A DNA stretch of 64,000 nucleotides from Microgenomates group bacterium (GCA_049720225.1 JBNASD010000003.1:143-64142); one strand, 5' to 3'; positions 38,550 through 60,223 are shown, numbered from the stretch's first letter. Notes: generated by a model from the letters alone, not told the origin. Program-made: numbers and translations.

Positions 38550-39593
38550 TTAAACAAACTCACTTATTTTTTGATTAAACCGCTCGGCGCTTTTTTGACC
38601 AAAAAACTGGCGGATAATTAAAGAAAGTAACGCCATTCCTGCGCCAGCGTAAATTACAAAGTACAAAATCCAACTCGTCCAAAAGGATTTAAAAACAAAA
38701 ATAGGTCCCTCCTCTTGCCATACATACCGTAAAAATTTTCTCCCTCCCCATAAATTAACTAAAAAACAAAATGCCATCCCCCACCATAAGGGATGATAAA
38801 AAATTCCCCCCATTCCCAACGGTAAACTCAAAACTGCCGCCGCACCAGTAATCGTTTCCCGAAGGGTCATTGCTACCGGAGCAAATTTCCTTCTTTGGGA
38901 AAAAAGCAAACTCCAATAAAAACTACGACGAAAGTACTTTTTGGCTACCGGTCCAAACCCTTCAAACTCATGTTTTACTCTGATTTGGTCATCAAAAATA
39001 ATGGCATAACGAGAAGCAATCCGGTAGGTAAACTCAATATCTTCAATATCCGCTCGCCGGTAACGCTCGTCAAATCCTCCTAAACGCAAAAAAACATCTC
39101 TTTTGATTGCCGCAATTCGGGTAGAAAAAAGATAAAAATAGCCCCGTTGGTCTCGTTCATTAATCCAATAACTCCAATCACGAAGGGCTTTATAATTAGG
39201 AAAAAAGTCTTTGCTTTTTCGCGGACGTACCCAAACTCCAGTTAAAGCAGTTAAATCTTTATCTTTTAAAAACCGTTCGGCAACTCGCTTAATCGTATCC
39301 GGATAACAAATTACATCCGCATCCAAAAACAAAACTATTTTTCCCTTTGCTTTTTTAACTCCTTCATTTCGAGCTTTTGCCGGTCCGGAATTTCTTTTTA
39401 AACGAACAACTTTCACTTTTGGTTGATAAAGTTCTGCCACTCGCGCGGTTTCATCAGGCGAACAATCATCAACGACAATTACTTCAAAATCAGAAAAACC
39501 ACGAGTGGCAAAAATTGAATCCAAAAGTCGCGGTAAAACTCCCGCCGCTTTGTAAGCAGGAATGACAATCGATAAAAATGGTCTTTTTTTCAT
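38550..39593 (-). CDS. family 2 glycosyltransferase with C-terminal membrane domain
   Basis: LSIVIPAYKAAGVLPRLLDSI...EVIVVDDCSPDET...LFLDADV (GT2 DxD region); C-terminal TMs. Confidence 0.75.
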   Translation of the reverse strand: MKKRPFLSIVIPAYKAAGVLPRLLDSIFATRGFSDFEVIVVDDCSPDETARVAELYQPKVKVVRLKRNSGPAKARNEGVKKAKGKIVLFLDADVICYPDTIKRVAERFLKDKDLTALTGVWVRPRKSKDFFPNYKALRDWSYWINERDQRGYFYLFSTRIAAIKRDVFLRLGGFDERYRRADIEDIEFTYRIASRYAIIFDDQIRVKHEFEGFGPVAKKYFRRSFYWSLLFSQRRKFAPVAMTLRETITGAAAVLSLPLGMGGIFYHPLWWGMAFCFLVNLWGGRKFLRYVWQEEGPIFVFKSFWTSWILYFVIYAGAGMALLSLIIRQFFGQKSAERFNQKISEFV

Positions 39594-40477
39594 TTTTGGG
39601 CAGTAATCACTAAACTCGTTAAGGGAATAGGAATTTTTATTTTTCCCGCCGGACTGATTGCTTTTCCAAAAAATTTAGCTAATTTAATTAAATTTCTTTC
39701 ACGAAAATAAAACTTAAAATTTTCCAAAAGATAATTTAAAGGATACAATCGTGTTGGATCTTTTATTTTTTTAATTTTAGTAAATCCTCCTTTTTTCAGC
39801 AAAAAAAACAAACTTTTTTGCTTAAAGAACCAAAGATGCTCCGGATGACGAAAGGCAAACCAATTTTTTCTCATTAGTTTTGCTTGCCAACCTCCAGCAT
39901 CGGGAGTAGAAAAAAGAAAAAGACCTCGTGGTTTAAGAATTCGGTAAACCTCTTTAACAAAATCAATTGGGGAGGCAACATGTTCAATTGTCTGAAAACA
40001 GGTAACTAAATCAAAAAACGCTGGGGGAAATTTTACTTTTAAAAAATCACGTTTAAAAATTGTTTTTACCCCTAAATTTTTTCTTGCTTCACTTACGGGT
40101 GTTAGCGAAAGATCTACCCCCCAAATTTCCCATCCATATTTTTTAGCTACTTCCAAAAAAAATCCAAAACTACATCCAATATCTAAAACTCTTCCTGGTT
40201 TGGAGAAAAAATTTTTAATCTGACAAAAAACCTTTTCAAAATAATCCAAAAATGACTCTTTCTCTGCCAAATAAGAAGAATAGCCTAAAGCGGATTCTCC
40301 GCGAAATGATTGATTTTCCCAATACTCTGCTTGATAAAACTTTTGAAGTTCAGCTGCAGTCGGTAACGGCCAAATAAATTGACTTTGACAAAAATCACAT
40401 TTAAAAAATTTTCTTTCCCCTTTTTGAAAATTAAAATAAGCAAAATGATGACACAAAGGACAATTAACTTTATTCAT
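39590..40477 (-). CDS. class I SAM-dependent methyltransferase with N-terminal Cys4 zinc ribbon
   Basis: CPLCHH...CDFCQ; motif I VLDIGCSFGFF. Confidence 0.65.
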   Translation of the reverse strand: MNKVNCPLCHHFAYFNFQKGERKFFKCDFCQSQFIWPLPTAAELQKFYQAEYWENQSFRGESALGYSSYLAEKESFLDYFEKVFCQIKNFFSKPGRVLDIGCSFGFFLEVAKKYGWEIWGVDLSLTPVSEARKNLGVKTIFKRDFLKVKFPPAFFDLVTCFQTIEHVASPIDFVKEVYRILKPRGLFLFSTPDAGGWQAKLMRKNWFAFRHPEHLWFFKQKSLFFLLKKGGFTKIKKIKDPTRLYPLNYLLENFKFYFRERNLIKLAKFFGKAISPAGKIKIPIPLTSLVITAQK

Positions 40478-42089
40478 TTTCTACCTGAAAAAGGGTAACA
40501 TATTCGCTGGTAAAAACTGGTTTTAAAAAAGAAAAAGGTTTAAAATCGCCAAATTCTTTTTCTTGCGGACCCCAAAAAACAAAGGCAATCTTGTTTTTCT
40601 TTAAAAAATCTTTCGCTTCTTTCTCCCCCATCTGGCCAGAAAAAAATAATCTCACCACCAAATTTTTCCTTTCAAAATCAACGGTTTCTGTAAAATGACC
40701 TAAATAAACAAAATTTCCCGCATAAGCGGGAATATAATTGCCAGCGGTAATACCGGATAATACCACCTCTTCATCTGAAGTATTTTTTTCCAACCATTTA
40801 ATTGCCTCCCACCAGTCTTTTAAAGGATACATCACCTGCGAGGGATAAGGAACTAAAGGTAAAAAGGCAGCCAAACGTTGATTGATAAATTGAAACTGCC
40901 CCTTCAAGGAAGCATATATTCCGGGTAACGAAAGACTAAGAATAATTAAAGTGAGGGGAATAATTTTTTTCGTTTTTCCTAAAAGAAAAACCGTTAGGCC
41001 AGCAAAAGGCAAATGTAAGGCAGTTTGAATCCAATAAAGTTCGGAGTGAAGGCCAGTAAGACGAAAAATAATCATTCCTCCTAACGCGGTTAACCACCAC
41101 CAAATTAGGGGGTAAAACTTCTTTAATTTTTGAAAAAAAACAAAAAAACTTCCCAAAATTCCCAAAAATAAAGTTAATCCGTGAGCAAAAATTACTTCGT
41201 AAAAAGAATAAAGCCAAGGGTGAGCCCGATCATAATCAACCACGCTTTTCCAAGGATAAAAATGAGTAATCCATTGAATATAAATTAAAGGTAAACTAGT
41301 TAATAAATAAAAAAACAAAAAGGGAAAAATTAAAGAAAATTTTCTTTGAGAAATAAATTTTTCTAAAAAAATAAAGCCAAAAATTCCCCATAAAATCAGT
41401 AAACTGGGTGGATGAACAAAACCAGCTAAAAATCCTATTCCGGTAGCTAAAAAAAACCATTTTTTCTGATTTTTTTCTTCTTCCCAATATTTTAAAAACG
41501 CTAATAACCCAATTACCGTTCCCAAATGACCCAAAAGATAATGAGGAACATAAGTAATTCTTTTAATTTGATCCATTTCTTGCCACCAATCAAGCCAAAG
41601 CATAGGATGCCATTTTCCTTCCCAAAAGCCAAAGCGAGGAAGGCTTCCGGAAAATAAAGCTAAAAGAAAAAAAGCTATCCGCGAAGAAAAAGAAGAAAAA
41701 AACCAACTTCCCAACCAGTAAATTGCCAATAATAAAATTGCCCCTAAAAGAAGGCGCAAAAAATGATAAGTTAAGGCCGGTGAAAAACCAAAAATCCCTC
41801 CAACTTTTCCTGATAAAAGATAAAATTCTTGAAGTAAGCTTCCTTGGTGGGGCTCGGTAGAATATTTATTGATTACCGTCCAACGCCCTTCTGCCCCCTG
41901 ACGCATTTTGGCTAAATAAACATTGTAGTCATAAGTATGATTATGCTCTCCTCCTAAAAAAATCCGCCGAGAATCCGCTAATTTCCCACTGGCAAAAAAT
42001 TCATAAATTGTTGGCGAAAAAGAAATAGTTAAGGCTAAAAAAGAAATCAACAAAACTAATAATGTTTCGTTTTTAATAATTTTTACCAT
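40470..42089 (-). CDS. polytopic membrane protein, GT-C-like; paralog A of a 4-member family with conserved C-terminal soluble domain
   Basis: >10 TMs; C-terminal ...AGN.....G.........FLKKNKI.FVFWGP.E aligns with 48897, 50504, 53817. Confidence 0.5.
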   Translation of the reverse strand: MVKIIKNETLLVLLISFLALTISFSPTIYEFFASGKLADSRRIFLGGEHNHTYDYNVYLAKMRQGAEGRWTVINKYSTEPHQGSLLQEFYLLSGKVGGIFGFSPALTYHFLRLLLGAILLLAIYWLGSWFFSSFSSRIAFFLLALFSGSLPRFGFWEGKWHPMLWLDWWQEMDQIKRITYVPHYLLGHLGTVIGLLAFLKYWEEEKNQKKWFFLATGIGFLAGFVHPPSLLILWGIFGFIFLEKFISQRKFSLIFPFLFFYLLTSLPLIYIQWITHFYPWKSVVDYDRAHPWLYSFYEVIFAHGLTLFLGILGSFFVFFQKLKKFYPLIWWWLTALGGMIIFRLTGLHSELYWIQTALHLPFAGLTVFLLGKTKKIIPLTLIILSLSLPGIYASLKGQFQFINQRLAAFLPLVPYPSQVMYPLKDWWEAIKWLEKNTSDEEVVLSGITAGNYIPAYAGNFVYLGHFTETVDFERKNLVVRLFFSGQMGEKEAKDFLKKNKIAFVFWGPQEKEFGDFKPFSFLKPVFTSEYVTLFQVENE

Positions 42090-43038
42090 TAAAAATTTCT
42101 TTAATTTCTCCTAATCCATAAAACCAATGGGTAACAAAAAAGATTAAAAATATTTTACCCCATAAATTTAATTTTTTCTGCCGATAAGCAAGCCAAAAAC
42201 TATAAAAACCAAAAAAGAATAAATAAAACCAAAAAGATAAAGGAGCGGTTAAAACAAGGATTACTGGTAAATAAAAAATAGGTTTTTTTGCCTCCGGATG
42301 CTTTTTTAAAAACATCATCCTCCCCTTTCCATAAACAACCATTCTCTTTGCCCAATCTTTTAAGTTACTCCGCATTTTATGAATTACCCCGCTTTTAGCC
42401 AGGTAAAAAAATCGTCTGCCGGTTTTTAAAAGGCGGTAGGTCAAATCTTCATCTTCGATAATACTTCCTAAACTCTCATCAAACCACCCTACTTCTTCAA
42501 TCGCTTTTTTTTCATACAAAACATTCACACAAGGCAAATGGGTAACTTCGCGATCTTCCTCATATCGTCTCCCCTGAACTGAACCCCGACTTCCTAAAAA
42601 AGTATTTAAAACAATTCCTAAGGCTTGATAAAAAGAAGTGGTTTTTGGAGGATAATTTGGCCCTCCTACCGCTACCAAATTAGGAATTTTTCGTTTGTAT
42701 TTTTGATAACCTAAAACTAGACTTTTTAACCAATTTTTTGGGGCGATACAATCGGCATCAATAAAAGCCAAAAAAGCGGTTCTACAATTTTTAACCGCCA
42801 CATTCCGACTAATAGCAATTCCCCGCCGGGGGTTAATAATCAAACGAACTCTTTTTGTTTTTCTCTGAAATTTTTTAATAAGAGGAATTGTTTGATCAGT
42901 AGAATTATTATCAATCACCAAAATTTCTGTTTTAAAAGCAGGATAGGATTGTTGTAAAAGAGATGATAAACAATCAACAATATTTTTTTCTTCATTAAAA
43001 CAAACAACCGCGACGGTAACTTTAGGTAAAATTTTCAT
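42073..43038 (-). CDS. family 2 glycosyltransferase with C-terminal TM helices
   Basis: VAVVCFNEEKNIVDCLSSLLQQSYPAFKTEILVIDNNSTDQT, FIDADC. Confidence 0.75.
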   Translation of the reverse strand: MKILPKVTVAVVCFNEEKNIVDCLSSLLQQSYPAFKTEILVIDNNSTDQTIPLIKKFQRKTKRVRLIINPRRGIAISRNVAVKNCRTAFLAFIDADCIAPKNWLKSLVLGYQKYKRKIPNLVAVGGPNYPPKTTSFYQALGIVLNTFLGSRGSVQGRRYEEDREVTHLPCVNVLYEKKAIEEVGWFDESLGSIIEDEDLTYRLLKTGRRFFYLAKSGVIHKMRSNLKDWAKRMVVYGKGRMMFLKKHPEAKKPIFYLPVILVLTAPLSFWFYLFFFGFYSFWLAYRQKKLNLWGKIFLIFFVTHWFYGLGEIKEIFNGKNY

Positions 43039-44468
43039 TTTAGATTTTGGAAAAAATTAATTGCTCCCAAAAGGCTCCTTTTTCCTTCCGCTGGATTCGT
43101 TACTAATTGAATCAATTTTTTAATTAAATATTTTGGCCGAAAATAAAAACGAAAATAAGCTTGCCGACAAAACTTTTCTACTTCTTTTGCGGAAAAGGTA
43201 GGCAAATTGACGGTTGCTTGATATTCTCCTTTTTTTCCTAACCACCGCCGGAAATTTTTTTCTCTTAAATAACCCATTTTCTCTGCCCAATAGTAAGCTT
43301 TTGTTCCCGGATAAACAAAAAGCGGATAAAATTGAGCAGAATCAGGACTAAGTTTACAAGCAAATTGAAAGGTTTGTTCGGCGGTTTTTAAAGTTTCTCC
43401 CGGCCCTCCAATAATAAAACAACCATGAACAAGTAAGCCTGCTTTTTTGGCATTTTGGGCAAAATTTAGCGATTGCTCAAGAGTAATTTTTTTGTTCATT
43501 TTATTTAAAATCTCTTGATTACCTGACTCATAGCCAACAATCAAAAGACGACAACCGGCTTTTTTCATTAATTTCATTGTTTCTAAATCTAAATGAACAC
43601 GGGTATTGGTTGACCAAGGAAGTTTATTGCCTTTCTTAATAAGAAGTTGACAGATCCTACGAACACGAGGAATGTTAGCAGTAAAGGTATCGTCTTCTAT
43701 CACCACTTCTTTAACTTGGGGTAAATTTTTGGCAATCCAAAAAAATTCCTCTACCACCTTTTCCGGAGAACGAAACCGATATTTCAATCCATGTAAAGTT
43801 TGCGGCCAAAGACAATAAAAACATCCATAAGGACATCCCCGACCGGTAATAATCATTACCATTGGATAACGGGCGGCTGCAAAAAAATAATCGCGCGGAT
43901 CTAAAAATTGTTTATAGATTTGGGAAACAAAAGGAAAATCATCTAAATTAGTTAAAAGCGGTCGAGGAGAATTGACTATAATTTTTTTTCCTTGGCGATA
44001 AACCAAACCGGCTACTTTTTTTAACGGCTTCCCCTTTTCTAATACCTCCGCTAACTCAACCACTGTTTGATCATATTCCCCTACCGCCACTCCATCGACC
44101 AAAGAAGCAGAAGTTAAGGTTTCTTTTGGTAAAGCAGAAACATGAGGACCAACTAGTAAAACAAAACAATCTAAGTTTTTCTTTACTTTTTCGGCAAAAC
44201 GTAAGTCGTTATTGATGCTCGGCGTGCTGGTTTCTATTACTACTAACTGGGGAGAGAACCTTTTTAACTTTTTTATTGCCTGGGAAAAATTCATTTTTTT
44301 AGCGACAAAATCAAAAAGCCAAACTTCATTCCCCCATTTCTGGGCCCAACCGCAAGCTAATGCCAACCAATAAGGATAATATAAAGTTTTCCCTACCGGG
44401 ACTCCCGGGCTGCGTTGACCGCGGGAAAATCCCGGTAAAAATGGTGGATTAACAAAAGCAATTTTCAT
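43035..44468 (-). CDS. B12-binding-domain radical SAM enzyme (class B radical SAM)
   Basis: N-terminal cobalamin-binding-like domain; CxxxCxxC cluster GRGCPYGCFYCLWP. Confidence 0.7.
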   Translation of the reverse strand: MKIAFVNPPFLPGFSRGQRSPGVPVGKTLYYPYWLALACGWAQKWGNEVWLFDFVAKKMNFSQAIKKLKRFSPQLVVIETSTPSINNDLRFAEKVKKNLDCFVLLVGPHVSALPKETLTSASLVDGVAVGEYDQTVVELAEVLEKGKPLKKVAGLVYRQGKKIIVNSPRPLLTNLDDFPFVSQIYKQFLDPRDYFFAAARYPMVMIITGRGCPYGCFYCLWPQTLHGLKYRFRSPEKVVEEFFWIAKNLPQVKEVVIEDDTFTANIPRVRRICQLLIKKGNKLPWSTNTRVHLDLETMKLMKKAGCRLLIVGYESGNQEILNKMNKKITLEQSLNFAQNAKKAGLLVHGCFIIGGPGETLKTAEQTFQFACKLSPDSAQFYPLFVYPGTKAYYWAEKMGYLREKNFRRWLGKKGEYQATVNLPTFSAKEVEKFCRQAYFRFYFRPKYLIKKLIQLVTNPAEGKRSLLGAINFFQNLK

Positions 44469-45100
44469 TTCTTTTTTGCTTTAATTAAAATATCTCCTCG
44501 AAAAAAGAAATTTAAAATTAAATTAAAAAAATCAGGAAACCGCCCAATTGATCCTAAACTAGCCACTTTTAAAATAGTAAACTCTTGACTAACAAAATCT
44601 TTAAACTCCTTTTTACTAAATTCAAAAATATGAGTAGGATCACCTCCATAAATAATTTTAAACAACCGCCACGATAAAGAAAGACGATTGTTGGTCCCAA
44701 TAATAAAAATTCCTTCTGGTTTAAGTATCCTTTTAATCTCTTTTAATGCCTTTTGGGGGTTTTTTAAATGCTCAAAAACATTGATAGAAAAAACTTTATC
44801 AAAAAAATTATCTTTAAATGGTAAATTGGTAATATCTGCTTGGAAAAATTTTAATTTAGGGAATAATTTTTTTGCCTTTTTAATTGCAAAAGAAGAAATA
44901 TCAACCCCCATTCCTTCTACTAAAGGAGGACAAACAAAATTTAAAAGATAACCTGTTCCACAACCTGCGTCTAAAATCTTTTCTCCTTTTTTTACTGCCA
45001 ATTCTTTTTTAAGCCAATTAAAAGAAGGAATTTTTTCTAAATTCTTTTCTAAATAATGATCAGTATGCTGGCGATAATAATCCAAATCAAACTTCTTCAT
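44465..45100 (-). CDS. class I SAM-dependent methyltransferase
   Basis: Motif I ILDAGCGTGYL; 211 aa. Confidence 0.7.
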   Translation of the reverse strand: MKKFDLDYYRQHTDHYLEKNLEKIPSFNWLKKELAVKKGEKILDAGCGTGYLLNFVCPPLVEGMGVDISSFAIKKAKKLFPKLKFFQADITNLPFKDNFFDKVFSINVFEHLKNPQKALKEIKRILKPEGIFIIGTNNRLSLSWRLFKIIYGGDPTHIFEFSKKEFKDFVSQEFTILKVASLGSIGRFPDFFNLILNFFFRGDILIKAKKK

Positions 45101-46169
45101 AATTTTTTAATAATTTTTCCGCTTTTTTAAAAGATAAAGGTAGTTTTTGATTAAAAATTAGCGAAAGATATTTCTTAAGAAATTTTTTATTCTCTGAAGC
45201 TAGACATTGCGAGTGGTATTTCTGAAAAATCTTAAATTTTAATCCCCGCTCGCGAATTTTTTTGAGGGATTCTTTTTTAACATTTCCCAAAGAAAAATGT
45301 AAAAAAGGACAAGGCAAAACTTCTCCATCAGGAGTAATGTATAGCACTTCCTTTACCGCCGGACAACCAAAACAAAACCAATTGCTTTCCATATCGCGAC
45401 GAATCCAAGCTGATTTTTTCCGCCAACGATTAATTTCTTGCTTATCTTTAGGAGTAAGAAGAATTTTTTGATTCTCCTGCCAACGACCAACAGGACAGGC
45501 AAAAATTGGATTGAGAGCAATTTTTTCTTTTGTTGCCCAGGCAAAAAGTTTTTGCAAATCATCATTAAAAATATTTTGATGAGAAACGGTGGTATTCACC
45601 GAAACCTTAAAACCAAATTTTTGCGCCATTTTTAAAGCTTTCATTGCTTTGATAAAGGTACCCTTTTTTCCCCGAAAGCGATCGTGAACTTTAGGATCAA
45701 AACTATCTAAACTAAAATTAAGTTTATCTACTCCTAATTTTTTTAATTTTTTTAAAAGATTAGAAGTAATAAGTGTCCCATTGGTAGTAATGGAAATATA
45801 ATTTTTTTTTGGCTGAAAAGCTTTAATGATTTCAAAAATTCTTTTATCTAGAAAAACCTCCCCACCTTGAAAAGAAAAATGAATCGCCCCTAATTCCATT
45901 GCTTCTTTCGCTAATCGTTGATACTCTTTTAAAGTGAGTTTCTTTTTTTGAAAACGAGCAAATTTTGCCGCAAAACAATGCTGGCAGGCTAAGTTACATT
46001 GATAATCAGTGACAATATCCAAATAATGAAGGGGCGGAAGAAAAGATTTTAAAAAAGCAAAAAGGTAACCTTTAAGGGTACGAAAAAACAAGAATGGTTT
46101 ACGAAAAAAGACCCCGGTATAGTCTAAAAAGGAAGCCATTTTTTTTCCCGAAATCAATTTTTTCTCCAT
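45087..46169 (-). CDS. radical SAM enzyme with SPASM/twitch-like C-terminal Cys cluster
   Basis: CNLACQHCF (CxxxCxxC); C-terminal CPVGRW...CFGCPAVKEVLYITPDGEVLPCPF. Confidence 0.65.
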   Translation of the reverse strand: MEKKLISGKKMASFLDYTGVFFRKPFLFFRTLKGYLFAFLKSFLPPLHYLDIVTDYQCNLACQHCFAAKFARFQKKKLTLKEYQRLAKEAMELGAIHFSFQGGEVFLDKRIFEIIKAFQPKKNYISITTNGTLITSNLLKKLKKLGVDKLNFSLDSFDPKVHDRFRGKKGTFIKAMKALKMAQKFGFKVSVNTTVSHQNIFNDDLQKLFAWATKEKIALNPIFACPVGRWQENQKILLTPKDKQEINRWRKKSAWIRRDMESNWFCFGCPAVKEVLYITPDGEVLPCPFLHFSLGNVKKESLKKIRERGLKFKIFQKYHSQCLASENKKFLKKYLSLIFNQKLPLSFKKAEKLLKNYEEV

Positions 46170-46172
46170 TTC

Positions 46173-47351: not shown

Positions 47352-47410
47352 TTTAACAAAAGTGTTAAAATAAATCTATTCAAAATTTTGCTTGGATTTA
47401 AAAAATTTTA

Positions 47411-52178: not shown

Positions 52179-52195
52179 TCCCACCTAAGGGGTGG
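52179..52195. repeat. palindromic hairpin repeat, copy 7 (TCCCACCTAAGGGGTGG) between convergent genes
   Basis: Overlaps stop (CTA) of 52185..53786. Confidence 0.6.
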
Positions 52196-53786: not shown

Positions 53787-53816
53787 TTTCTAGTTTTAGT
53801 TCATTATATAATAAAA

Positions 53817-55406
53817 ATGATGAGAAAAATTCTGAAAATTAATTTTTTTTATTTCACGGAAAAAAAGGAATTAATCGGAGTAATTTTTCTTTCTTTTTTT
53901 GCGTTATTTTTAAGTCTTATTTCTACCTTTACTGATATTTTTTTCCATGCTCCCCCCAACACCGTCTACTCTTTTGCTCATAATTATATGCCTGATTATT
54001 ATCAATATCTTTCTTGGATGAAAGATGGCGCGGATGGTAAATTTTTTATCACTTCTCGTTATTCGGCAGTTGATTTCGTACCTAAACCAGTTTATCTTTT
54101 TTATCCTCTTTTAGGTTTTCTCTCGCAAAAAATGGGTTTACCTTTAGTCTTTGGCTATACCTTAGGGCGAATTTTTTGGGCGGGAGTTCGTCTTTTGGCA
54201 ATTTATTTTTTAATTACTCAGATAATCAAAAAACCCTACTTGCGTTTATTGACTTTTTTTCTTTGTTTGTTTCTTCCCCCTTTTTACCAAATTTTTTCCG
54301 GAAAATTAACATTTCAAAATATCTCCAATTTAGACCCCCTTGCCCGTAATCTTTTTATCCCCCACGACAGCGCTACTTTAGCTCTAATTTTGTTTTCCGC
54401 TATTTTTTTTAATTTTTATCTTCGGCAAAAAAAAATTCTTTTTCTTTTTTCATCCGCACTTCTTTTAAGCATTGCCTCAGTTTTTAATCCGGCAATTACC
54501 AGTTTATTTTTGCTTTTTCTTGCCGGTGGTGGTTTTTTATATTTGGTTAAAAACAAAAAATTTTTTCCTTTATTATTGGGAGGAATAATTTTGGCTATTT
54601 TTAGCCTGCCAATTCTTTTTTACTATCAACATCTTTTTGCCACTACTCTCCCTTTTTCGTGGATGTTTCATCGCCAAAAAACAGTAGTGGTTTTGGATTT
54701 TAAGAATCACTTTTTGGCTCTTTTACCGTTTTTATTAGTTGGTTTTTGGGGATTTTTAAAAAGCTTTTCTCAAAAAGATTTTTTAACTAACTTTCTTTTA
54801 AGTTGGGTAATTATCTCTTTTATTTTAGCTCCTCTTTTAGGAAGAATTCTTCCTTTATCGCAAGAACGCCTTTTTGAAATATCTCATTTTTTACCGTTGG
54901 CAATTTTTGGCGGAAAAACTTTAGAAAGCTTAAGGGGAATTAAATTTAAAATTGCCTTAACTTTGCTTTTTTTATTTATTCTCCCCTATTTCGTTTTTGA
55001 TTTGAAATGGCATATCAAGCAGTTTGCCTCTCCTTATTTTAATATTTATATTCCTATTACTACCCTTCAAGCATTTGGGTGGCTTGATCAAAATACTCCC
55101 CCTCTCTCGGTAGTCGCCGCTGGTTATTACACTGCCAATATGATTCCTGCTTTTTCTCACAATCGCGTGTTTTTTGGTCATGATTTTACTACTTACTTGG
55201 CGGAAGAAAAACTTCAAGAATTAAATCTTTTATTTTCTCCTTCTACACCAGAAGAAGAAATTAAGGAGATTCTCCAAAAAAATAAAGTTGATTATTGGTT
55301 TTTTAGTCCAGAGACGCCAACTATTCCTTCTCAATTGATAGAAAAATTAGGTTTTAAATTGATTTTTTTCAATCAAGGGAATCAAATTTACCAAGTGAAA
55401 TTTTAA
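53817..55406 (+). CDS. polytopic membrane protein, GT-C-like, paralog D
   Basis: Multi-TM; conserved C-terminal domain ...AAGYYTANMIPAFSHNRVFFGHD...ILQKNKVDYWFFSPE. Confidence 0.5.
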   Translation: MMRKILKINFFYFTEKKELIGVIFLSFFALFLSLISTFTDIFFHAPPNTVYSFAHNYMPDYYQYLSWMKDGADGKFFITSRYSAVDFVPKPVYLFYPLLGFLSQKMGLPLVFGYTLGRIFWAGVRLLAIYFLITQIIKKPYLRLLTFFLCLFLPPFYQIFSGKLTFQNISNLDPLARNLFIPHDSATLALILFSAIFFNFYLRQKKILFLFSSALLLSIASVFNPAITSLFLLFLAGGGFLYLVKNKKFFPLLLGGIILAIFSLPILFYYQHLFATTLPFSWMFHRQKTVVVLDFKNHFLALLPFLLVGFWGFLKSFSQKDFLTNFLLSWVIISFILAPLLGRILPLSQERLFEISHFLPLAIFGGKTLESLRGIKFKIALTLLFLFILPYFVFDLKWHIKQFASPYFNIYIPITTLQAFGWLDQNTPPLSVVAAGYYTANMIPAFSHNRVFFGHDFTTYLAEEKLQELNLLFSPSTPEEEIKEILQKNKVDYWFFSPETPTIPSQLIEKLGFKLIFFNQGNQIYQVKF

Positions 55407-55452
55407 AATTGATTATTGACAATTGAAATAAAAATTGCTAATTTAAAAAAGT

Positions 55453-56142
55453 ATGGAGGAAAAACCTGATTTGAAAAAAATCGCCGCGGGAATGATTTTG
55501 GGATTGGTAATTTTAGGAGGTGCCTTATATTTTGCCTGGAAATACTCCCAAAAACAAGGAATTAAACTTACTTTACCTTCGGGAGGAACTTATACTGGCG
55601 AAAAAAGTGGTTTTCAAGATGCTAATCCCCCCACCGCCCCTCTTCGTTTTACCGCCCCAGCAGATGTGGAATGGGTTACTTATCAAGGAAAAGTCTATCC
55701 TTACACTTTTTCTTATCCTAAAACTTTATCTTTAGCCAATTTTCCCAACGATCCTTTAGACGCCGTTGGAATTGCTTGGGGTAATCTTAACCCTCAGTTT
55801 AATATTTTGTTAGATATTGAAAATATTGAACAATTAGACCCCCAAAACGTCGGTAATACCGAAGCTTTTGTTCACAACTGGTGGAAAAGATTTTCTGGTC
55901 TTAAAGGAGTTTTATCGGTAGACAGATTCACCAATGCTAATGGTTTAAAAGGTTATAAAGCAATTTACATTAACACCGCAGGACAAACTCCTAATGTTGA
56001 CATCTTTTTTGAAGTACCGCGTAATCCTAAATTAGTAATCCATTTAGCTAATGGGATTTTGGATCCTTTAATTTTTAACCGCATTGTTGATAGCGTCAAT
56101 TGGCTTTCTCCTACCCCCAGCCCCACTCCTCCTTCTCAATAA
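55453..56142 (+). CDS. membrane-anchored hypothetical protein with PT-rich C-terminal tail
   Basis: N-terminal TM; ...SPTPSPTPPSQ* tail. Confidence 0.45.
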   Translation: MEEKPDLKKIAAGMILGLVILGGALYFAWKYSQKQGIKLTLPSGGTYTGEKSGFQDANPPTAPLRFTAPADVEWVTYQGKVYPYTFSYPKTLSLANFPNDPLDAVGIAWGNLNPQFNILLDIENIEQLDPQNVGNTEAFVHNWWKRFSGLKGVLSVDRFTNANGLKGYKAIYINTAGQTPNVDIFFEVPRNPKLVIHLANGILDPLIFNRIVDSVNWLSPTPSPTPPSQ

Positions 56143-56173
56143 TTCTTTTAAAAAGATATAATAAAATTAATTT

Positions 56174-57937
56174 ATGACCAAAGTGTCGATAATTTTTTTT
56201 CTTGGCTTAATAATCCGGTTATTTTTAATTCCCGCCCCTGGTTTTGAAGCGGATATTGCTTTTTGGAAATCGTGGAGCTTAGCGGCGGAAGAAAAAGGAA
56301 TCAATTGGCTTACCCAAAATACCAATTATAACTATCCTTCCGGTTTTGCCTTAATATTATGGTTGGTAGGAAAAATTTATCGCCTTTTTGCCGACCCCCA
56401 GAATTACAATCAATACTGGAATGCCCATAATTTTTTATATTTATTTTTAATCAAACTTATTCCTATTTTTTCCGACATTTTCCTTGCTTTAGGAATTTTT
56501 TTGTTTTTTAGTCAACCAGAAAAAATTAACCTTCCACCAAAAATCAAAAAACTAGCTCCTTTTTTGGCCGGCGCTTATTTTTTTCACCCATTAGTTCTTT
56601 ATGACGGTGTCTGGTGGGGACAGGTTGATAGTTTAGGGGCGGTATTTTTAGTTTGGAGTTTAATTTTTCTTTTTTGGCAAAAACCAGTTTTAGGAGCAAT
56701 AACCTTAACCGCCGGTTTTCTTTTAAAAATGCAATTGATGATTTTTTTACCTCTTTTTTTTATTATTTTATGGATTTATTGGTCTTGGAAAACTATGATT
56801 AAAGGAATTATCGCTTCTTTTCTTACTTTTTTATTTCTTTCTTTTCCATTTTTATTAGCCAATAATTTAGGACGAACCTTTACCTTAATTACCCAAAACG
56901 CTGATTGGTTTCCCCTTCTTTCTTTGCGAGCAGATAATTTTTGGTGGCTTTATTCGTGGGGAAAAGGAATGACTACTAGCGATAAAATTCTTACCCTCGG
57001 CATTATCCAAGCAAAAACTTTAGGTTTAATTTTATTCTCTGCTGGTTATCTTTTAGCTTTATTCGCCCTCCTTCCTAAACCTACTCCCCAAAAAATTTTA
57101 ATTAGTTTTTCTTTAGCCGGTTTTTCTTTTTTTCTTTTCCCTACTCAAAGCCATGAACGTTATCTTTTTCCTACGTTAGTCCTTTTATTATTCCTTGTCC
57201 CTTTTTATTGGGAGGATAAAAAGAAAAATATCTTTATTACTCTTCTTACCACCCTTTCTTTGGCTTCCTTAATTAATCTCAACAGTGCAATGAAAAACAA
57301 TTATCCTCACAACAGTTGGCCGTTTTTGGACTTTACTGCCAAAGGAGAAGGAGATATTCTTGTCTCTTTCGTTAATCTGGGAGCTTTTTTTTGGCTTTTA
57401 AATTTCTGGCGAAAAGAAATTAGCAGAATAGGATTAATTAGCGCTTGTTTTTTGATATTGCTAGGAATTATTTGGGGAAACTTAAAGTTTTTTTTAGGAA
57501 AACCAATTTCTTTAAGTTCTCTTAAACCCATTGATTATTCTCAAGATTTTGGCTCTCCTCAATTTAATTTAGCAGTTCAATCAACTTTTGGACCAAAAAG
57601 TTGGTCATTTTTAAGCGTTAACTGGTTTTTTTATCGGAAAGGAATTGGCACCCACGCTAATTCGAAAATCTCTTGGGATTTAGGTGGTCGGTTTAGTAAA
57701 TTTTTTACTGGTTATGGTGTAGATAGTTTAGCCAACCAATCTGCCTCAGTGATTTTTGAAATTTGGGGAGATGACCAACTTCTTTTCCGTTCCTCAAAAA
57801 TCACCCGCGCTGACCTTCCTCAAGCCACTGAAGTTTCCGTTAAAGGGGTAAAGACTTTAACGTTAGTGGTTAATGATGCCGGTGATGGCATTTATAGTGA
57901 CCATGCCGATTGGCTAGAACCAAGGCTTTATAAATAA
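56174..57937 (+). CDS. polytopic membrane protein with C-terminal NPCBM-like (GH98-type) carbohydrate-binding domain
   Basis: ~12 TMs then GIGTHANSKISWDLGGRFSKFFTGYGVDS...VIFEIWGDDQLLFRSS...VKGVKTLTLVVNDAGDGIYSDHADWLEPRL (NPCBM consensus incl. DHADWA-like motif). Confidence 0.55.
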   Translation: MTKVSIIFFLGLIIRLFLIPAPGFEADIAFWKSWSLAAEEKGINWLTQNTNYNYPSGFALILWLVGKIYRLFADPQNYNQYWNAHNFLYLFLIKLIPIFSDIFLALGIFLFFSQPEKINLPPKIKKLAPFLAGAYFFHPLVLYDGVWWGQVDSLGAVFLVWSLIFLFWQKPVLGAITLTAGFLLKMQLMIFLPLFFIILWIYWSWKTMIKGIIASFLTFLFLSFPFLLANNLGRTFTLITQNADWFPLLSLRADNFWWLYSWGKGMTTSDKILTLGIIQAKTLGLILFSAGYLLALFALLPKPTPQKILISFSLAGFSFFLFPTQSHERYLFPTLVLLLFLVPFYWEDKKKNIFITLLTTLSLASLINLNSAMKNNYPHNSWPFLDFTAKGEGDILVSFVNLGAFFWLLNFWRKEISRIGLISACFLILLGIIWGNLKFFLGKPISLSSLKPIDYSQDFGSPQFNLAVQSTFGPKSWSFLSVNWFFYRKGIGTHANSKISWDLGGRFSKFFTGYGVDSLANQSASVIFEIWGDDQLLFRSSKITRADLPQATEVSVKGVKTLTLVVNDAGDGIYSDHADWLEPRLYK

Positions 57938-57958
57938 ATTACCAATTGCAAATTTTCA

Positions 57959-60223
57959 ATGAGAAATCAATTTAACAATTTTCAAATAAAAGGAAAAAAT
58001 ATAAAAAATTTCAAAAGCCTTAGAAAAAAAATCTGGATTTTCTTTTTGTTAGCGGCAATCATTTTTAATTTCCTCACTCTTTGGCCGGAGTTAACAACTC
58101 GTTTAGACCCCAATGATAATATTTTTCAATTTGGATTAGTTCAAAGAATGGCGCAAATTTGGGATTTAGTTTTTACCGGCAAAATTTCTCCTTTGTCTTT
58201 AATTGACCATTGGGTTCCAGCCTGGGTGCTTGGTTATCCTCTTCCCTATTACTACCAACATCTTCCTCATCTGATTATTGTGATTTTCTATAAACTTTTA
58301 TTACAAAAGGTAAACTTATATAACATTTTTAAAATAGTAAAATTTCTTCTTTGGGTTAGTTATCCCCTTGCTCTTTATCAATCCGGTCGCTGGTTTGGCT
58401 TTTCCAAAATTACCTCTGCTTTAATGGCTTTCTTTGGTTCGCAAATCATTACCGATGGTCTTTATGGAGCGGATATTGTTAGCTTTGCCTGGCGAGGATA
58501 TGGTTTAACCACCCAACTTTTTGCCTTAATTTTTACTCCCCTGGCTTTCGCTTACGGTTGGCGAATTTTAAATCAAAACAAAATCTCTTTTCGTCAAATA
58601 GCTTGGTTAACCCTGCTTTTATCCGCCAGTTTTGCCTCTCATTTAGCTTTTGGTTATTTTGTTTGTTTTTCTTTATTATTTGCCCCCTTAGCTTTTCTTC
58701 CTTGGGAAAGACTACCTTATTTTTTAACTAACTTTGCCGAAGAAAAACTTCGCTGGCAACAATTGTTAAAACCAGTTTTTAAAAAATATCAAATTTTATT
58801 TCTGACTTTTTTAACCACTTTTCTTCTTTTAAGCTACTGGTTTATTCCCCTCTTTCTCCATAATCAATACCACAATATTTCTTTTTGGGATTCACCTTTA
58901 AAATGGAACTCTTACGGAGCCAAGGAAGTTATCGTGATGTTTTTAAGCGGCCAGCTCTTTGATTTTGGCCGACCACCGATTTTAACCGCCTTGGTAATTG
59001 GCGGTTTATTTTTGGCTCTTTCTCGATTTAAACCCCGTCACCGATTTTTGGTTTTTCTTTTTGGCTTTTGGTTTGCCTTGTATTTTGGGAGAACCACTTG
59101 GGGAAAATTAATCGACCTTCTACCAATGATGAGGGAAATGCACCAACAGCGGTTAGTGAATAGCTTACATATAGTTTGTATCTTTTTGATAGGTTTATTT
59201 GGAGGGTTTCTCTGGCGAAAAATTAAAAATTTGGCAATTAAATTGAAAATAAAACCTACTTTTATTGTTTCTTCTATCCTTTTTATCATCTTAGGAATTC
59301 CTGTTTATAAGGCAAACTGGCAGTATTTAAAACTTAATTCTTCGTGGATTAAACAGGATAATCAAGCTTATGAGCAAATAAAAAATGACTATCAGGCGCT
59401 AATAAACTATCTTAAAAGTCTTCCCCCAGGAAGAATTTATATCTTTAAAAAAACCAAGGACGGTCAACCATTCAATATTGGCCAAACCGCTATCTTTTTG
59501 GCTTTAAGCCGGGAAACTTTTCCCACCGTTGGTTTTCTTCCAGAAACTTGGTCACTTAATAGCGATATTGAACTTTTATTTGACGAAAACAATCCCCAAC
59601 ATTATCGCCTTTTCAATGTCCGTTGGGTAGTTTTGCCCCACGATAATCCTTTACCTGATTTTATGAAAGAAAAAGCAGTTTTTGGTCCTTTTAAGGTAGC
59701 AGAAGTGGAAAGCGGCGGTTATTTTACCCTCGGTACCAGTCAATTAAAAGTTAAAACGAACAAAGAGAATATTTTTAACTTTCTTCATTTATGGTTTTGG
59801 TCTGACAAACCTACGCAAAATGAGTTTCCTACTTTAGAACTTAATGGAGAAGATCCTCAACCACCAGTTTTTAATTCCCTTCCTTATTCCCATTTTTCCC
59901 CACCTAAAAATTTGGGAATTATTGATGAAGAAAAAGTAGAAGATGAAAAATATCAAGCAAAATTTACCGTTGCCGACTCTTGTCAAAATTGCCTTTTGGT
60001 TTTCAAAATGACTTATCATCCCAACTGGCAAGTATTTCTGGATGGTCAAAAAGCAGAAAAAATAATGGTTTTTCCCAGTTTTATCGCCCTTAAAGTCTCC
60101 CCAGGTGCGCATCAGGTAGTTTTTTATTACCAACCTTATTGGCTAAAAATCCCCCTTTTAATTATTGGTTGGCTTGTCTTTTTCTTTTTTGTTTTTAAAA
60201 GAAAATTTTTATTAAGGGATTAA
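57959..60223 (+). CDS. large polytopic membrane protein (YfhO/GT-C-like), hypothetical
   Basis: 754 aa, ~14 TMs plus C-terminal soluble domain. Confidence 0.5.
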   Translation: MRNQFNNFQIKGKNIKNFKSLRKKIWIFFLLAAIIFNFLTLWPELTTRLDPNDNIFQFGLVQRMAQIWDLVFTGKISPLSLIDHWVPAWVLGYPLPYYYQHLPHLIIVIFYKLLLQKVNLYNIFKIVKFLLWVSYPLALYQSGRWFGFSKITSALMAFFGSQIITDGLYGADIVSFAWRGYGLTTQLFALIFTPLAFAYGWRILNQNKISFRQIAWLTLLLSASFASHLAFGYFVCFSLLFAPLAFLPWERLPYFLTNFAEEKLRWQQLLKPVFKKYQILFLTFLTTFLLLSYWFIPLFLHNQYHNISFWDSPLKWNSYGAKEVIVMFLSGQLFDFGRPPILTALVIGGLFLALSRFKPRHRFLVFLFGFWFALYFGRTTWGKLIDLLPMMREMHQQRLVNSLHIVCIFLIGLFGGFLWRKIKNLAIKLKIKPTFIVSSILFIILGIPVYKANWQYLKLNSSWIKQDNQAYEQIKNDYQALINYLKSLPPGRIYIFKKTKDGQPFNIGQTAIFLALSRETFPTVGFLPETWSLNSDIELLFDENNPQHYRLFNVRWVVLPHDNPLPDFMKEKAVFGPFKVAEVESGGYFTLGTSQLKVKTNKENIFNFLHLWFWSDKPTQNEFPTLELNGEDPQPPVFNSLPYSHFSPPKNLGIIDEEKVEDEKYQAKFTVADSCQNCLLVFKMTYHPNWQVFLDGQKAEKIMVFPSFIALKVSPGAHQVVFYYQPYWLKIPLLIIGWLVFFFFVFKRKFLLRD

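Follow-up and report, generated by a model that had tools for sequence, protein, structure and literature searches.

A 22-kb Microgenomates locus for the probable assembly of unusual lipid-linked sugars and their transfer to the cell surface

Gene content and layout

The window analyzed here is a 64,000-nt stretch from a metagenome-assembled genome of the Microgenomates group (candidate phyla radiation, CPR), in which the locus occupies positions 38550-60223. An ORF check found the 16 ORFs of the locus to be real at their coordinates (16/16), and Pfam upheld the domain calls of the initial annotation, with corrections for some. An ORF of 229 aa with a membrane anchor (55453-56142) was absent from that annotation. 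The features are as follows:

38550-39593, minus: GT2_c, GT2 glycosyltransferase that closes the operon (Pfam Glycos_transf_2, 123 bits)
39590-40477, minus: class I SAM methyltransferase with N-terminal CxxC...CxxC zinc ribbon (Pfam Methyltransf_23, 96 bits)
40470-42089, minus: Mem1, GT-C-fold membrane glycosyltransferase, oligosaccharyltransferase (AglB)-like, without WWDYG
42073-43038, minus: GT2_b, GT2 glycosyltransferase, conserved partner of J (Pfam GT2 families; 4-nt overlap with J)
43035-44468, minus: J, B12-binding-domain radical SAM protein of an HpnJ-sister family, core of the cassette (Pfam Radical_SAM and B12-binding; NCBIfam HpnJ)
44465-45100, minus: MT_s, class I SAM-dependent methyltransferase (Pfam Methyltransf_11/31/25)
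45087-46169, minus: radical SAM protein with partial SPASM (twitch-like) C-terminal domain (Pfam Radical_SAM 100 bits, SPASM 37 bits)
46173-47351, minus: GT2_a, polyprenyl-phosphate sugar synthase-like GT2 that opens the operon, with a C-terminal tail of 4 TM helices (Pfam Glycos_transf_2, 91.8 bits)
47352-47410, no strand: divergent AT-rich intergenic region of 59 bp between GT2_a and the second radical SAM gene (from ORF coordinates)
47411-48916, plus: second radical SAM protein, weak B12-binding-like N-terminal domain (Pfam Radical_SAM 53.6 bits)
48897-50483, plus: Mem2, GT-C paralogue of Mem1 (27% identity over 517 residues, E 4e-28)
50504-52171, plus: Mem3, GT-C paralogue (full-length match to Mem4 at E 2e-8; match to Mem1 at E 1e-5)
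52185-53786, minus: PMT_2/ArnT-like GT-C protein (Pfam PMT_2 31.1 bits, cutoff 26.1)
53817-55406, plus: Mem4, GT-C paralogue (526 residues aligned with Mem1 at 26% identity, E 1e-19)
55453-56142, plus: 229-aa protein with N-terminal membrane anchor (one TM helix, residues 7-25), function unassigned
56174-57937, plus: ALG6/GT87-like GT-C membrane domain with C-terminal NPCBM/CBM51 lectin domain (Pfam NPCBM, 115 bits)
57959-60223, plus: YfhO-like large polytopic membrane protein, putative GT-C (Pfam YfhO 37 bits, cutoff 28.5)

Eight genes form the minus-strand operon (47351 to 38550), and the gene overlaps described for it are confirmed; they measure 4, 8, 17, 4, 4 and 14 nt, with one 3-nt gap. 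Most of the remaining genes lie in the plus-strand series described earlier, but this series is broken by the PMT_2 gene, which is encoded on the minus strand. The divergent layout at 47352-47410 recurs in a related CPR locus (L002), where Mem2 and a B12-radical SAM gene are on one strand and GT2_a is on the other. The 55453-56142 product had no Pfam or NCBIfam match, and no homologue was found among 84 related loci. Seven signal-peptide proteins directly adjoin the operon and a TagA/WecG gene was found; these are possible acceptors. A search of the window for nucleotide-sugar genes gave none.

The solved protein closest to GT2_a is the Pyrococcus Dol-P-Man synthase (5mlz, E 6e-16), with ArnC also among its best PDB matches; in NCBIfam it matched AglJ (164 bits), Dol-P-hexose transferase (102), PpgS (65) and ArnC (46). 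Four TM helices are predicted at residues 235-376; this tail had been called GtrA-like, which Pfam does not support, and orthologues carry PF26629 (GT2_TM_C). A C-terminal TM segment is also predicted for GT2_b, which weakly matched MftF (124 bits) and SunS-type enzymes. The zinc ribbon of the 39590 methyltransferase is confirmed (C6xxC9...C27xxC30).

The CxxxCxxC motif is present in all three radical SAM proteins of the window (3/3), in the 45087 protein as C58xxxC62xxC65. The SPASM domain reported for this protein is there but partial: only three C-terminal cysteines (C269, C287, C322) are conserved in 19 orthologues. Its best PDB matches were SkfB, BlsE and MoaA. The 47411 protein had been described as a second B12-radical SAM enzyme; the radical SAM domain stands, but the B12-binding match (25.3 bits) is under the cutoff of 32.1. 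This protein is 24% identical to J and weakly matched HpnJ, Sden_1168 and the ladderane B12-radical SAM family in NCBIfam.

GT-C membrane proteins

Each of the seven polytopic proteins considered GT-C-like gained some support; the Mem1 family and the NPCBM fusion have the strongest case, the YfhO-like protein the weakest. The proteins encoded at 40470, 48897, 50504 and 53817 are indeed paralogues, aligning with one another over the full length at 23-27% identity (E 1e-5 to 4e-28). Their common C-terminal soluble domain appears in the Mem1 model as an alpha/beta fold spanning roughly residues 410-539, a region that the alignments between paralogues also cover. The GT-C fold is evident in the structural models of the Mem1 family and the NPCBM protein. 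The four Mem paralogues resemble oligosaccharyltransferases, but the WWDYG motif that defines AglB, STT3 and PglB is replaced by xxT-AGNY in 61 of the 61 members examined, and sequence similarity to these enzymes is otherwise undetectable. The family was found only in Patescibacteria. Mem2 orthologues score 272-406 bits in the CPR loci L001, L002 and L005, with a weaker relative (95 bits) in L009, and Mem3 retains the equivalents of D54 and H183.

In the PMT_2 protein the WDEAGY first-loop motif was located at residue 34, and PMT_2 genes also flank the cassette in L001-L003. The reported NPCBM fusion is real, with this domain at the C-terminus of the 56174 protein. Its homologues, annotated as 'Gpi18-like mannosyltransferase', contain PF03155 or PF09594. 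In Foldseek searches with the AF2 model (pLDDT 91.2), the membrane domain matched ALG6 (6snh, E 3e-8), EmbA/B and PIG-U, and the C-terminus matched CBM51 (2vmg, TM-score 0.82). EmbA, EmbB and EmbC have the same architecture, in which a GT-C membrane domain carries a carbohydrate-binding module at its C-terminal end; the 56174 protein differs in being about half their size, in a membrane domain closest to ALG6/GT57 and GT87, and in its CBM51/NPCBM lectin. The YfhO-like assignment of 57959 is above the cutoff, but only the last ~80 residues (654-735) match, at the end of the model; about eight TM helices are predicted.

The J family and its conserved neighbourhood

J aligns over its full length with HpnJ, its best NCBIfam match (392 bits, cutoff 577.6), and scores at most 157 bits with any other family; its B12-binding domain scores 32.8 bits (Pfam cutoff 32.1). 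A housekeeping role of the radical SAM proteins in RNA methylation can be set aside: the best match of J is HpnJ, and no rRNA or tRNA family came close among the NCBIfam matches. More than 5400 relatives of J were found. The J family is monophyletic (83/83) and sister to HpnJ; identity is 42-99% within the family and 30-40% between the family and HpnJ, and no member reaches the curated HpnJ cutoff. Seventeen signature residues are common to J and HpnJ and missing in paralogues, and 15 are specific to J, including C350 and C434. These two cysteines are near-invariant in J and absent from HpnJ, which hints at a different mechanism. J thus stands for a widespread family, so far unstudied, whose sister is HpnJ, the ring-contraction enzyme of hopanoid synthesis. 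The family ranges over more than 15 phyla and is found in Bacteroidaceae, Lachnospiraceae, Treponema, CPR and DPANN, lineages not known to be hopanoid producers.

Gene order is conserved in relatives. The CPR loci L001, L002, L005 and L009 keep GT2_a, a methyltransferase, J, GT2_b and Mem1/Mem2-type GT-Cs; in L001 (283 bits) and L009 (217 bits) the gene immediately upstream of J is an MT_s orthologue, and a GT2_c orthologue is likewise terminal in L001 (196 bits). The pairing of J with a GT2 persists in more than 15 phyla. J adjoins a GT2 gene nearly always, as hpnJ adjoins hpnI: a GT2 is located at most 6 kb from J in 78 of the 83 loci, and in 60 of the 83 a GT2 is the immediate neighbour and shares the strand of J. 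A GT2_b orthologue of at least 200 bits is directly downstream in 24 loci, and a GT2_b-like gene is directly upstream in 12 Chloroflexi loci. Orthologues of the 45087 radical SAM protein occur near J in about 16 loci of other phyla (178-316 bits).

Recurrent neighbours of J include SPASM-type radical SAM proteins, methyltransferases, heptose-nucleotide genes (SIS, GHMP kinase, NTP-transferase/HAD), GacJ-like DUF2304, Wzx flippases and GT-C enzymes. Further carbohydrate neighbours across phyla are DegT, epimerases/dehydratases, GT1, Bac_transf, carbamoyltransferase, PMT_2 and DUF6077. A GT2_a-like gene is beside DUF2304 in 14 loci that hold distant relatives of the cassette. Taken together, the heptose-nucleotide genes, DegT, epimerases, DUF2304, flippases and GT-Cs strongly support a carbohydrate context for the cassette. 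The minus-strand operon of the window is its CPR version. The GT-C paralogues around the cassette are conserved in close CPR relatives; in most phyla the cassette occurs without Mem-type GT-Cs, and outside CPR it pairs with Wzx flippases or other GT-C families.

Proposed pathway and alternatives

Our preferred reading (probability about 0.6) is a three-stage pathway. GT2_a, which is of the DPMS/ArnC/GacI type and brings a 4-TM tail of its own, would load a sugar onto polyprenyl monophosphate on the cytoplasmic side of the membrane, and GT2_b and GT2_c may add or extend further sugars. J would then modify the sugar installed by its GT2 partner, helped by the SPASM/twitch radical SAM protein, the second radical SAM protein and the two class I methyltransferases, which may add O- or N-methyl groups. 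After flipping, the seven GT-Cs (four OST-like paralogues, one PMT_2/ArnT-like, one ALG6-like with CBM51 and one YfhO-like) would move the lipid-linked sugar or sugars to extracytoplasmic acceptors, possibly surface proteins or a wall glycopolymer.

The first stage is suggested by the relatives of GT2_a. GacI-GacJ-GacK-GacL, GtrA/B/C, CsbB-GtcA-YfhO, PpgS-Rv3632-Rv3779 and ArnC-ArnT likewise combine a DPMS/ArnC-type GT2 with GT-C transfer; GacI is an Und-P-GlcNAc synthase activated by its DUF2304 partner GacJ, and transfer of the sugar is then the task of GacL, a GT-C enzyme (bioRxiv 10.1101/180810). A GT2 together with GacJ-like DUF2304 also occurs in relatives of the cassette. The window differs from these systems in having seven GT-Cs instead of one, in holding no recognizable flippase (GtrA, Wzx or MurJ type) and no separate DUF2304 protein, and in inserting three radical SAM and two methyltransferase genes between synthase and transferases.

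For J, HpnJ-type rearrangement or C-methylation could apply. We favor a non-methylating carbon-skeleton rearrangement, such as the pyranose-to-carbocycle ring contraction of HpnJ, Cds and PtmC or a related reaction, with radical C-methylation a close second. The HpnI/HpnJ/HpnK system for bacteriohopanetetrol cyclitol ether synthesis also has a B12-domain radical SAM enzyme beside a GT2, and its logic may be common, a glycosyltransferase installing a hexose that the radical SAM enzyme then rearranges. Against this, J falls under the HpnJ equivalog cutoff, the window contains no hopanoid genes and no HpnK-like deacetylase, and GT2_b is not orthologous to HpnI. The cyclopentitol-forming radical SAM enzymes Cds (calditol synthase) and PtmC (pactamycin), compared here by their described chemistry, are proposed to act as HpnJ does, on an already attached hexose (PMC13459092, PMC9092360). 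In vitro reconstitution of HpnJ has never been achieved (PMC9092360).

A less probable reading is that the pathway is the same and J is a cobalamin-dependent radical C-methyltransferase of the MoeK5, GenK or Fom3 type, giving a C-methyl or branched sugar with no ring rearrangement. Most characterized B12-binding radical SAM enzymes are methylases, PhpK, HpnR, GenK-like and KedN5 methylases are among the secondary NCBIfam matches of J, and CysS and TokK are among its PDB matches. The best PDB match, however, is AprD4, a non-methylating radical SAM enzyme acting on a sugar; HpnJ leads by a wide margin and shares the 17 signature positions, and other B12-radical SAM paralogues, possible methylases, are often present in the same loci. 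HpnJ itself co-clusters with the C-methylases Fom3 and MoeK5 in sequence-similarity networks (PMC9204698), therefore likeness to HpnJ leaves the chemistry of J unfixed.

It is unlikely that J and GT2_b modify a membrane lipid head group directly, producing a hydrolysis-resistant cyclitol-type glycolipid, with the GT-Cs as an independent envelope glycosylation set. The TM segment of GT2_b and the mobility of a cassette that mostly lacks Mem-type GT-Cs are consistent with it, but the cassette commonly occurs with glycan-assembly genes (nucleotide-heptose genes, Wzx flippases, priming phosphoglycosyl transferases, GT1). The window has no lipid-synthesis genes, and to our knowledge CPR bacteria are generally without lipid synthesis. 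HpnJ, the closest characterized enzyme, and the analogous Cds do act on lipid-linked hexoses, HpnI/HpnJ on bacteriohopanetetrol and Cds on GDGT (PMC13459092, PMC9092360); at the curated threshold, under which J falls, the HpnJ domain is found only in genomes with SHC and HpnH (10.1101/2025.07.29.667474).

Least probable is a chance neighbourhood of a mobile radical SAM/GT2 cassette for a small secreted or soluble glycoside (secondary metabolite or RiPP-like) and a lineage-typical CPR GT-C array: SPASM radical SAM proteins typically mature peptides (here the top PDB match is SkfB), GT2_b weakly matches MftF and SunS-type enzymes, a truncated integrase lies at 60903-61382, and the cassette is patchily distributed and plasmid-borne in Lawsonia, but no obvious precursor-peptide gene was noticed, short of a systematic small-ORF search, the SPASM cysteine pattern is reduced, the first operon gene is of the polyprenyl-P-sugar synthase type, Mem1 is translationally coupled between GT2_b and the methyltransferase by the 8- and 17-nt overlaps, an interleaving conserved in L001 and L002, and the chromosomal position, beside LeuRS and ComEC, is that of L001.

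The sugar- or lipid-modification reading of the initial annotation thus holds in part: the recurrent neighbours support the carbohydrate context, but the chemistry could be either C-methylation or HpnJ-type rearrangement, the link between radical SAM enzymes and GT-Cs comes from adjacency in CPR only, and details of tail, strand and SPASM domain were off. The coupling of cassette and GT-Cs is our inference, because the GT-C paralogues are CPR-specific and other export routes occur elsewhere. The gene combination had not been recognized as a characterized pathway, and literature searches found no characterized example. Under the preferred three-stage reading, the probable role of the cluster is to make sugars of unusual chemistry on a lipid carrier for attachment at the cell surface.

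Layout of the locus and its surroundings

The locus at 38550-60223 comprises 16 ORFs, given here by position, strand and type.

38550-39593 (-), family 2 glycosyltransferase GT2_c
39590 (-), class I methyltransferase
40470 (-), GT-C-like membrane protein Mem1
42073-43038 (-), family 2 glycosyltransferase GT2_b
43035-44468 (-), radical SAM protein with B12-binding domain, here called J
44465 (-), class I methyltransferase
45087-46169 (-), SPASM-type radical SAM protein
46173-47351 (-), family 2 glycosyltransferase GT2_a
47411-48916 (+), second radical SAM protein
48897 (+), GT-C-like membrane protein Mem2
50504 (+), GT-C-like membrane protein Mem3
52185-53786 (-), PMT_2 protein
53817 (+), GT-C-like membrane protein Mem4
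55453-56142 (+), membrane-anchored protein
56174-57937 (+), membrane protein with NPCBM domain
57959-60223 (+), YfhO-like protein

The ORF set proposed in the initial annotation was found exactly as described; the gene at 55453-56142 (229 aa) had been missed. The claimed minus-strand operon from 47351 to 38550 consists of eight genes coupled by overlaps of 4-17 nt or a 3-nt spacing. Pfam agreed with the three GT2 enzymes, the two class I methyltransferases, the PMT_2 protein and the membrane protein with a C-terminal NPCBM domain, and the WDEAGY motif and the CxxC...CxxC zinc ribbon were present in the locus proteins. The PMT_2 gene had been counted in the plus-strand series and is actually on the minus strand. 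All three radical SAM proteins carry the CxxxCxxC motif. Both of those described as B12-type matched Radical_SAM, but the B12 domain of the protein at 47411-48916 was sub-threshold (PF02310, 25.3 vs. 32.1 bits). The YfhO-like protein has its Pfam match (PF09586, 37 bits, cutoff 28.5), but only at residues 654-735, against the C-terminal end of the model (last 85 of 835 positions). Promoter and terminator scans did not rise above shuffled expectation, and no operon boundaries were obtained from them.

Genes for LeuRS and ComEC are found upstream, as in a related CPR contig (L001). Between LeuRS and the operon, seven consecutive ORFs (32025-38462) all encode an N-terminal signal or anchor sequence; three of them also carry a TM segment at the C-terminus, and a Big_1 domain and a faint pilin-Ig match occur in one each. 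No such ORFs occupy the equivalent position in L001. These seven proteins are candidate glycosylation acceptors. A TagA/WecG/CpsF-family glycosyltransferase (7425-8159, minus strand, 118.7 bits) implies that a lipid-linked wall glycopolymer is made, and this polymer could also be an acceptor for GT-C decoration. Downstream of the locus (60224-62048), an AT-rich gap of 679 bp (G+C about 0.285) precedes a truncated integrase of 159 aa, which has the N-terminal SAM-like domain only, and then an NYN-domain gene; this region may be the remnant of a mobile-element boundary.

The G+C content of the window is about 0.33. Rfam detected two tRNAs and nothing else; tRNA-Arg(CCT) and tRNA-Pro(CGG) (11208-11355) have no spacer according to ARAGORN and a 3-nt gap by Rfam coordinates. 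Elsewhere in the window, an unusual fusion of an S41 (C-terminal processing) peptidase with a DnaJ domain (24029-25303) and a PEGA-domain protein (9710-10927) were found. A large protein (3424-5778) combines Big_7 Ig and calcineurin-like phosphoesterase domains with a disaggregatase-related repeat that scored below the gathering score (31.5 vs. 33.9 bits).

The J family and its gene neighborhoods

The alignment of J to the NCBIfam HpnJ model (392.4 bits) covers the full length, and the next families were far lower (BchE, 157 bits). The initial annotation had allowed that the radical SAM enzymes might prove to be housekeeping rRNA/tRNA methylases; J is closest to HpnJ, and the MiaB, RimO and MnmL models gave at most 44 bits. 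The motif C212xxxC216xxC219 and an N-terminal B12-binding Rossmann domain (PF02310, 32.8 bits vs. cutoff 32.1) mark J as a putative cobalamin-dependent (class B) radical SAM enzyme.

The score of J is below the curated cutoff of the HpnJ equivalog (TIGR03471, 577.6 bits), as are the scores of ten family members from ten phyla (369-442 bits). Identity of the window protein to the annotated HpnJ proteins of Mycetohabitans, Paraburkholderia, Burkholderia and Caballeronia is only 34-37%, a range that includes a full-length match in Methylobacterium. In a neighbor-joining tree the 83 sampled J proteins are monophyletic and the three HpnJ proteins form their own clade, the two clades being sisters; identity is 42-99% within J and 30-40% between J and HpnJ. 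Among the positions that at least 95% of J proteins conserve, 17 are common to all three HpnJ sequences and occur in fewer than 25% of other B12-radical SAM paralogs. Another 15 positions are J-specific, including Cys350 (Thr in HpnJ) and Cys434, which are near-invariant across the 83 members and absent from authentic HpnJ. These cysteines may be catalytic thiols or hydrogen-atom donors, which would suggest chemistry unlike that of HpnJ. A recent survey reported that the HpnJ TIGRFAM domain is restricted to genomes that also encode SHC and HpnH (10.1101/2025.07.29.667474). Based on the sub-cutoff scores, the separate clade and this restriction, J belongs to a distinct, unnamed sister family of HpnJ, the members of which are labeled by PGAP just as 'radical SAM protein'. 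Neither SHC nor HpnH was detected among the ORFs scanned in the window (64 kb of the genome), and no HpnK or YdjC-like match was found in the locus. Authentic hpnIJK and hpnJI operons exist in other genomes that were compared.

More than 5400 relatives of J were detected at E ≤ 1e-20. A scan of one genome per species gave 80 loci with homologs of 45-57% identity in Patescibacteria, Dependentiae, Chloroflexi/Dehalococcoidia, Aenigmatarchaeota, Gastranaerophilales, Scalindua/Brocadiaceae, Magnetococcales, several delta-proteobacterial lineages, Omnitrophota, Acidobacteriota, Chlamydiota, Bacteroidaceae/Prevotellaceae, Lachnospiraceae, Oscillospiraceae and Treponema. The 83 sampled members span more than 15 phyla.

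ORFs were called in 84 related loci, searched with the window proteins and clustered all against all. Clusters 2, 4, 14 and 16 were excluded as shadow ORFs, since the example members map to the opposite strand of the conserved J gene. In 78 of the 83 loci a GT2 gene is found no more than 6 kb from J, and in 60 the two are immediate neighbors on the same strand. Immediately 3' of J, 24 loci have an ortholog of GT2_b (at least 200 bits), and the start and stop codons of the pair usually overlap or abut. In 12 loci of the Chloroflexi type the GT2_b-like gene is 5' of J, not 3'. Other recurrent neighbors are listed below.

Table. Gene families near J and number of loci
SPASM-type radical SAM family: 28 (orthologs of 178-316 bits in about 16 of them)
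207-aa methyltransferase: 22
NTP-transferase/HAD fusion: 21
GHMP kinase: 19
Epimerases/dehydratases: 18
GT1: 17
DUF2304: 14
SIS isomerase: 13
DUF218: 13
DegT: 11
Priming Bac_transf: 9
Carbamoyltransferase: 5

Three of the listed families together constitute a nucleotide-heptose pathway: the NTP-transferase/HAD fusion, GHMP kinase and SIS isomerase. A large polytopic membrane protein is encoded within 8 kb of J in 60% of loci. Ten of these were sampled and included PMT_2 GT-Cs, Wzx-type flippases (adjoining J in loci L011, L018 and L044), a DUF6077 protein and a fusion to an F5/8-type-C (galactose-binding-like) lectin domain. The last, beside J in an unrelated bacterium (L045, 12014-14311), parallels the GT-C-NPCBM fusion of the window.

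The composite arrangement is kept in close CPR relatives. In L001 the order is PMT_2, methyltransferase, Mem2, GT2_a, B12-radical SAMs with methyltransferases, J, GT2_b, Mem1 copies, GT2_c and LeuRS; in L002, a second such relative, GT2_a is transcribed divergently from Mem2 and a B12-radical SAM, as in the window. Thus neither of the outcomes that the initial annotation had set against its own interpretation, housekeeping radical SAM enzymes and an unconserved gene order, was observed.

The SPASM-type protein matched the Pfam SPASM domain at 37 bits. A complete SPASM domain is not borne out: in place of the 7-Cys motif for two auxiliary clusters, only Cys 269, 287 and 322 are conserved at the C-terminus among 19 orthologs. 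This pattern fits a single auxiliary cluster, as in twitch-type enzymes, better than two. In L002 a 742-aa protein (7038-9266) fuses a SPASM radical SAM to a GT1/GT4 glycosyltransferase domain, physically linking this type of radical SAM to sugar transfer.

A J homolog with 45% identity was found on plasmid 1 of Lawsonia intracellularis (L085, NC_008012), a cultivable pig pathogen, in which the plasmid makes J experimentally accessible. About two-thirds of this 27-kb plasmid is a glycan cluster around J, with GT2s, GalE, two DUF2304 proteins, the heptose-nucleotide genes SIS, HAD-IIIA and GHMP kinase, five methyltransferases, a second radical SAM, DUF6077 and DUF2142. Clostridiaceae bacterium strain 1XD21-29 (L084), a cultured isolate and not a MAG, has GT2, J, GHMP kinase and epimerases, and is a potential genetic system. 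In the anammox (Scalindua/Brocadiaceae) loci L035, L038, L047, L051 and L080, five to eight radical SAM genes of the SPASM and B12 types form a cluster with DUF218, and this cluster lies upstream of J, GT2_b and a methyltransferase.

Glycosyltransferases and GT-C-like membrane proteins

GT2_a is closest to the Pyrococcus Dol-P-Man synthase (DPMS, 5mlz; E 6e-16, residues 7-259) and ArnC (E 4e-12, residues 9-290); it also matched the AglJ, Dol-P-hexose synthase and PpgS models, and it has four C-terminal TM helices. This homology and the membrane anchor point to a putative polyprenyl-phosphate sugar synthase of the DPMS/ArnC/GtrB/GacI type. The tail had been called GtrA-like, a reading that was rejected; no GtrA match was obtained even at E ≤ 10, nor was similarity to a DUF2304 protein. 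It has been shown experimentally that GacI and its DUF2304 partner GacJ make Und-P-GlcNAc for transfer by the GT-C enzyme GacL, and PpgS and Rv3632 act likewise to GacI and GacJ (10.1101/180810); this precedent supports a polyprenyl-phosphate-sugar logic for GT2_a. GT2_b is not an ortholog of HpnI (TIGR03472, 20.8 bits), and real HpnI was matched over 57 N-terminal residues only.

Seven membrane proteins had been described as GT-C-like. All have some support, with the Mem1 family and the NPCBM protein the best supported of the seven and the YfhO-like protein the least. Mem1-4 are full-length paralogs; the family was found only in Patescibacteria, and profile-against-sequence comparison (hhalign) gave no relationship to the PMT_2, NPCBM or YfhO-like proteins. 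Mem1 was placed in no family by sequence, and PDB sequence searches gave nothing. Since sequence searches were uninformative, its GT-C status was set by structure prediction. The AF2 model, built on 61 homologs (pLDDT 94.8, pTM 0.92), retrieved GT-C enzymes only in Foldseek: AglB (E 7e-10), then DPY19, STT3, PglB, AftA and ArnT. Mem1 is thus predicted to combine a GT-C membrane domain with an AglB-type C-terminal globular domain. The sole PDB match of the family profile was the AglB domain (E 0.13), where the family motif VVLSxxT-AGNYIPAY falls on AVLS-WWDYG-NWI. The fold is related to that of the STT3/AglB/PglB oligosaccharyltransferases, but WWDYG is absent: none of the 61 members has WWDxG, and the aligned segment reads xxT-AGNYIPAY. 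All four paralogs in the window retain D54 (first external loop), R177 and H183.

In the model of the NPCBM protein (pLDDT 91.2), the C-terminus matched CBM51 (TM-score 0.82) and the membrane domain matched ALG6 (E 3e-8, 506 aligned columns), EmbA/B and PIG-U; homologs have Alg6_Alg8 or GT87 Pfam matches. The PMT_2 protein scored 31.1 bits (gathering score 26.1) and has WDEAGY at residue 34, just past TM1. The Pfam score and this acidic first-loop motif suggest a PMT_2/ArnT-like GT-C (GT39/GT83). The window shares the GT-C fold transferase with Gtr/Gac three-component systems. For the dedicated flippase of such systems (GtrA/GtcA or the Wzx-like GacK), no GtrA, Polysacc_synt, MurJ or MatE match was obtained in any scanned ORF.

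Proposed pathway and its significance

The best-supported model, to which we assign a probability of about 0.6, is loading of a sugar onto a lipid carrier, tailoring by radical SAM enzymes and methyltransferases, and surface transfer by GT-C enzymes. GT2_a would make a polyprenyl-phosphate sugar, and GT2_b and GT2_c would add further sugars. J, the twitch-type enzyme, the second radical SAM and the two class I methyltransferases would tailor the sugar in the cytoplasm. The product would then be flipped across the membrane and moved by the GT-C enzymes to surface proteins or a wall polymer.

For the reaction of J, we tentatively favor a rearrangement of the HpnJ type, because J is a sister family of HpnJ and shares signature residues with it, because J is consistently beside a GT2 gene as hpnJ is beside hpnI, and because AprD4, the nearest solved relative, is a non-methylating sugar radical SAM enzyme. 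C-methylation is somewhat less probable. HpnJ itself co-clusters with the C-methylases Fom3 and MoeK5 (PMC9204698) and has never been reconstituted in vitro (PMC9092360), and J has conserved cysteines of its own; the same observations would fit a third chemistry, which is less likely still. The HpnJ-type rearrangement can be taken further, to the rather doubtful proposal that the whole family contracts the ring of a GT2-installed hexose or heptose, or rearranges its carbon skeleton in a related way, making carbocyclic sugars a common surface-glycan modification. The proposed substrate would be a hexose or heptose already on the lipid carrier or nascent glycan.

Lipid-carrier glycosylation with GT-C transfer is a known kind of system. 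What is new is a radical-SAM tailoring core around an unnamed, very widespread HpnJ-sister family, the tie of this family to heptose and other glycan pathways in many phyla, and a CPR-restricted OST-like GT-C family without WWDYG. Reviews up to 2026 contain no B12-radical SAM enzyme with a glycan role (PMC12931638; PMC13459092), and targeted searches of the literature on CPR, anammox, GDP-heptose and HpnJ found no description of the cassette. The family has a genomic signature (J with GT2, often with a twitch-type radical SAM, a methyltransferase and heptose-nucleotide genes) and experimentally accessible carriers in Lawsonia plasmid 1 and the Clostridiaceae isolate. HpnJ-type chemistry has never been reconstituted in vitro, so the J family offers new, possibly easier substrates for such work.

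The Patescibacteria-restricted OST-fold family without WWDYG is relevant to envelope building in reduced-genome bacteria. If ring contraction or a related rearrangement holds for the family, the surface glycans of more than 15 phyla of bacteria and archaea would widely contain carbocyclic units (cyclitol or carba-sugar) that have so far gone unrecognized, with carriers including CPR, DPANN, gut Bacteroidaceae and Lachnospiraceae, anammox bacteria and Lawsonia; in CPR they would be delivered by a private OST-like GT-C family that has lost the sequon-binding WWDYG. Carbocyclic surface sugars that resist glycosidases and acid, or C-branched ones, would represent a new class of glycan modification, with implications for host-epibiont recognition in CPR, for the evasion of phages and immunity, and for biomarker chemistry.
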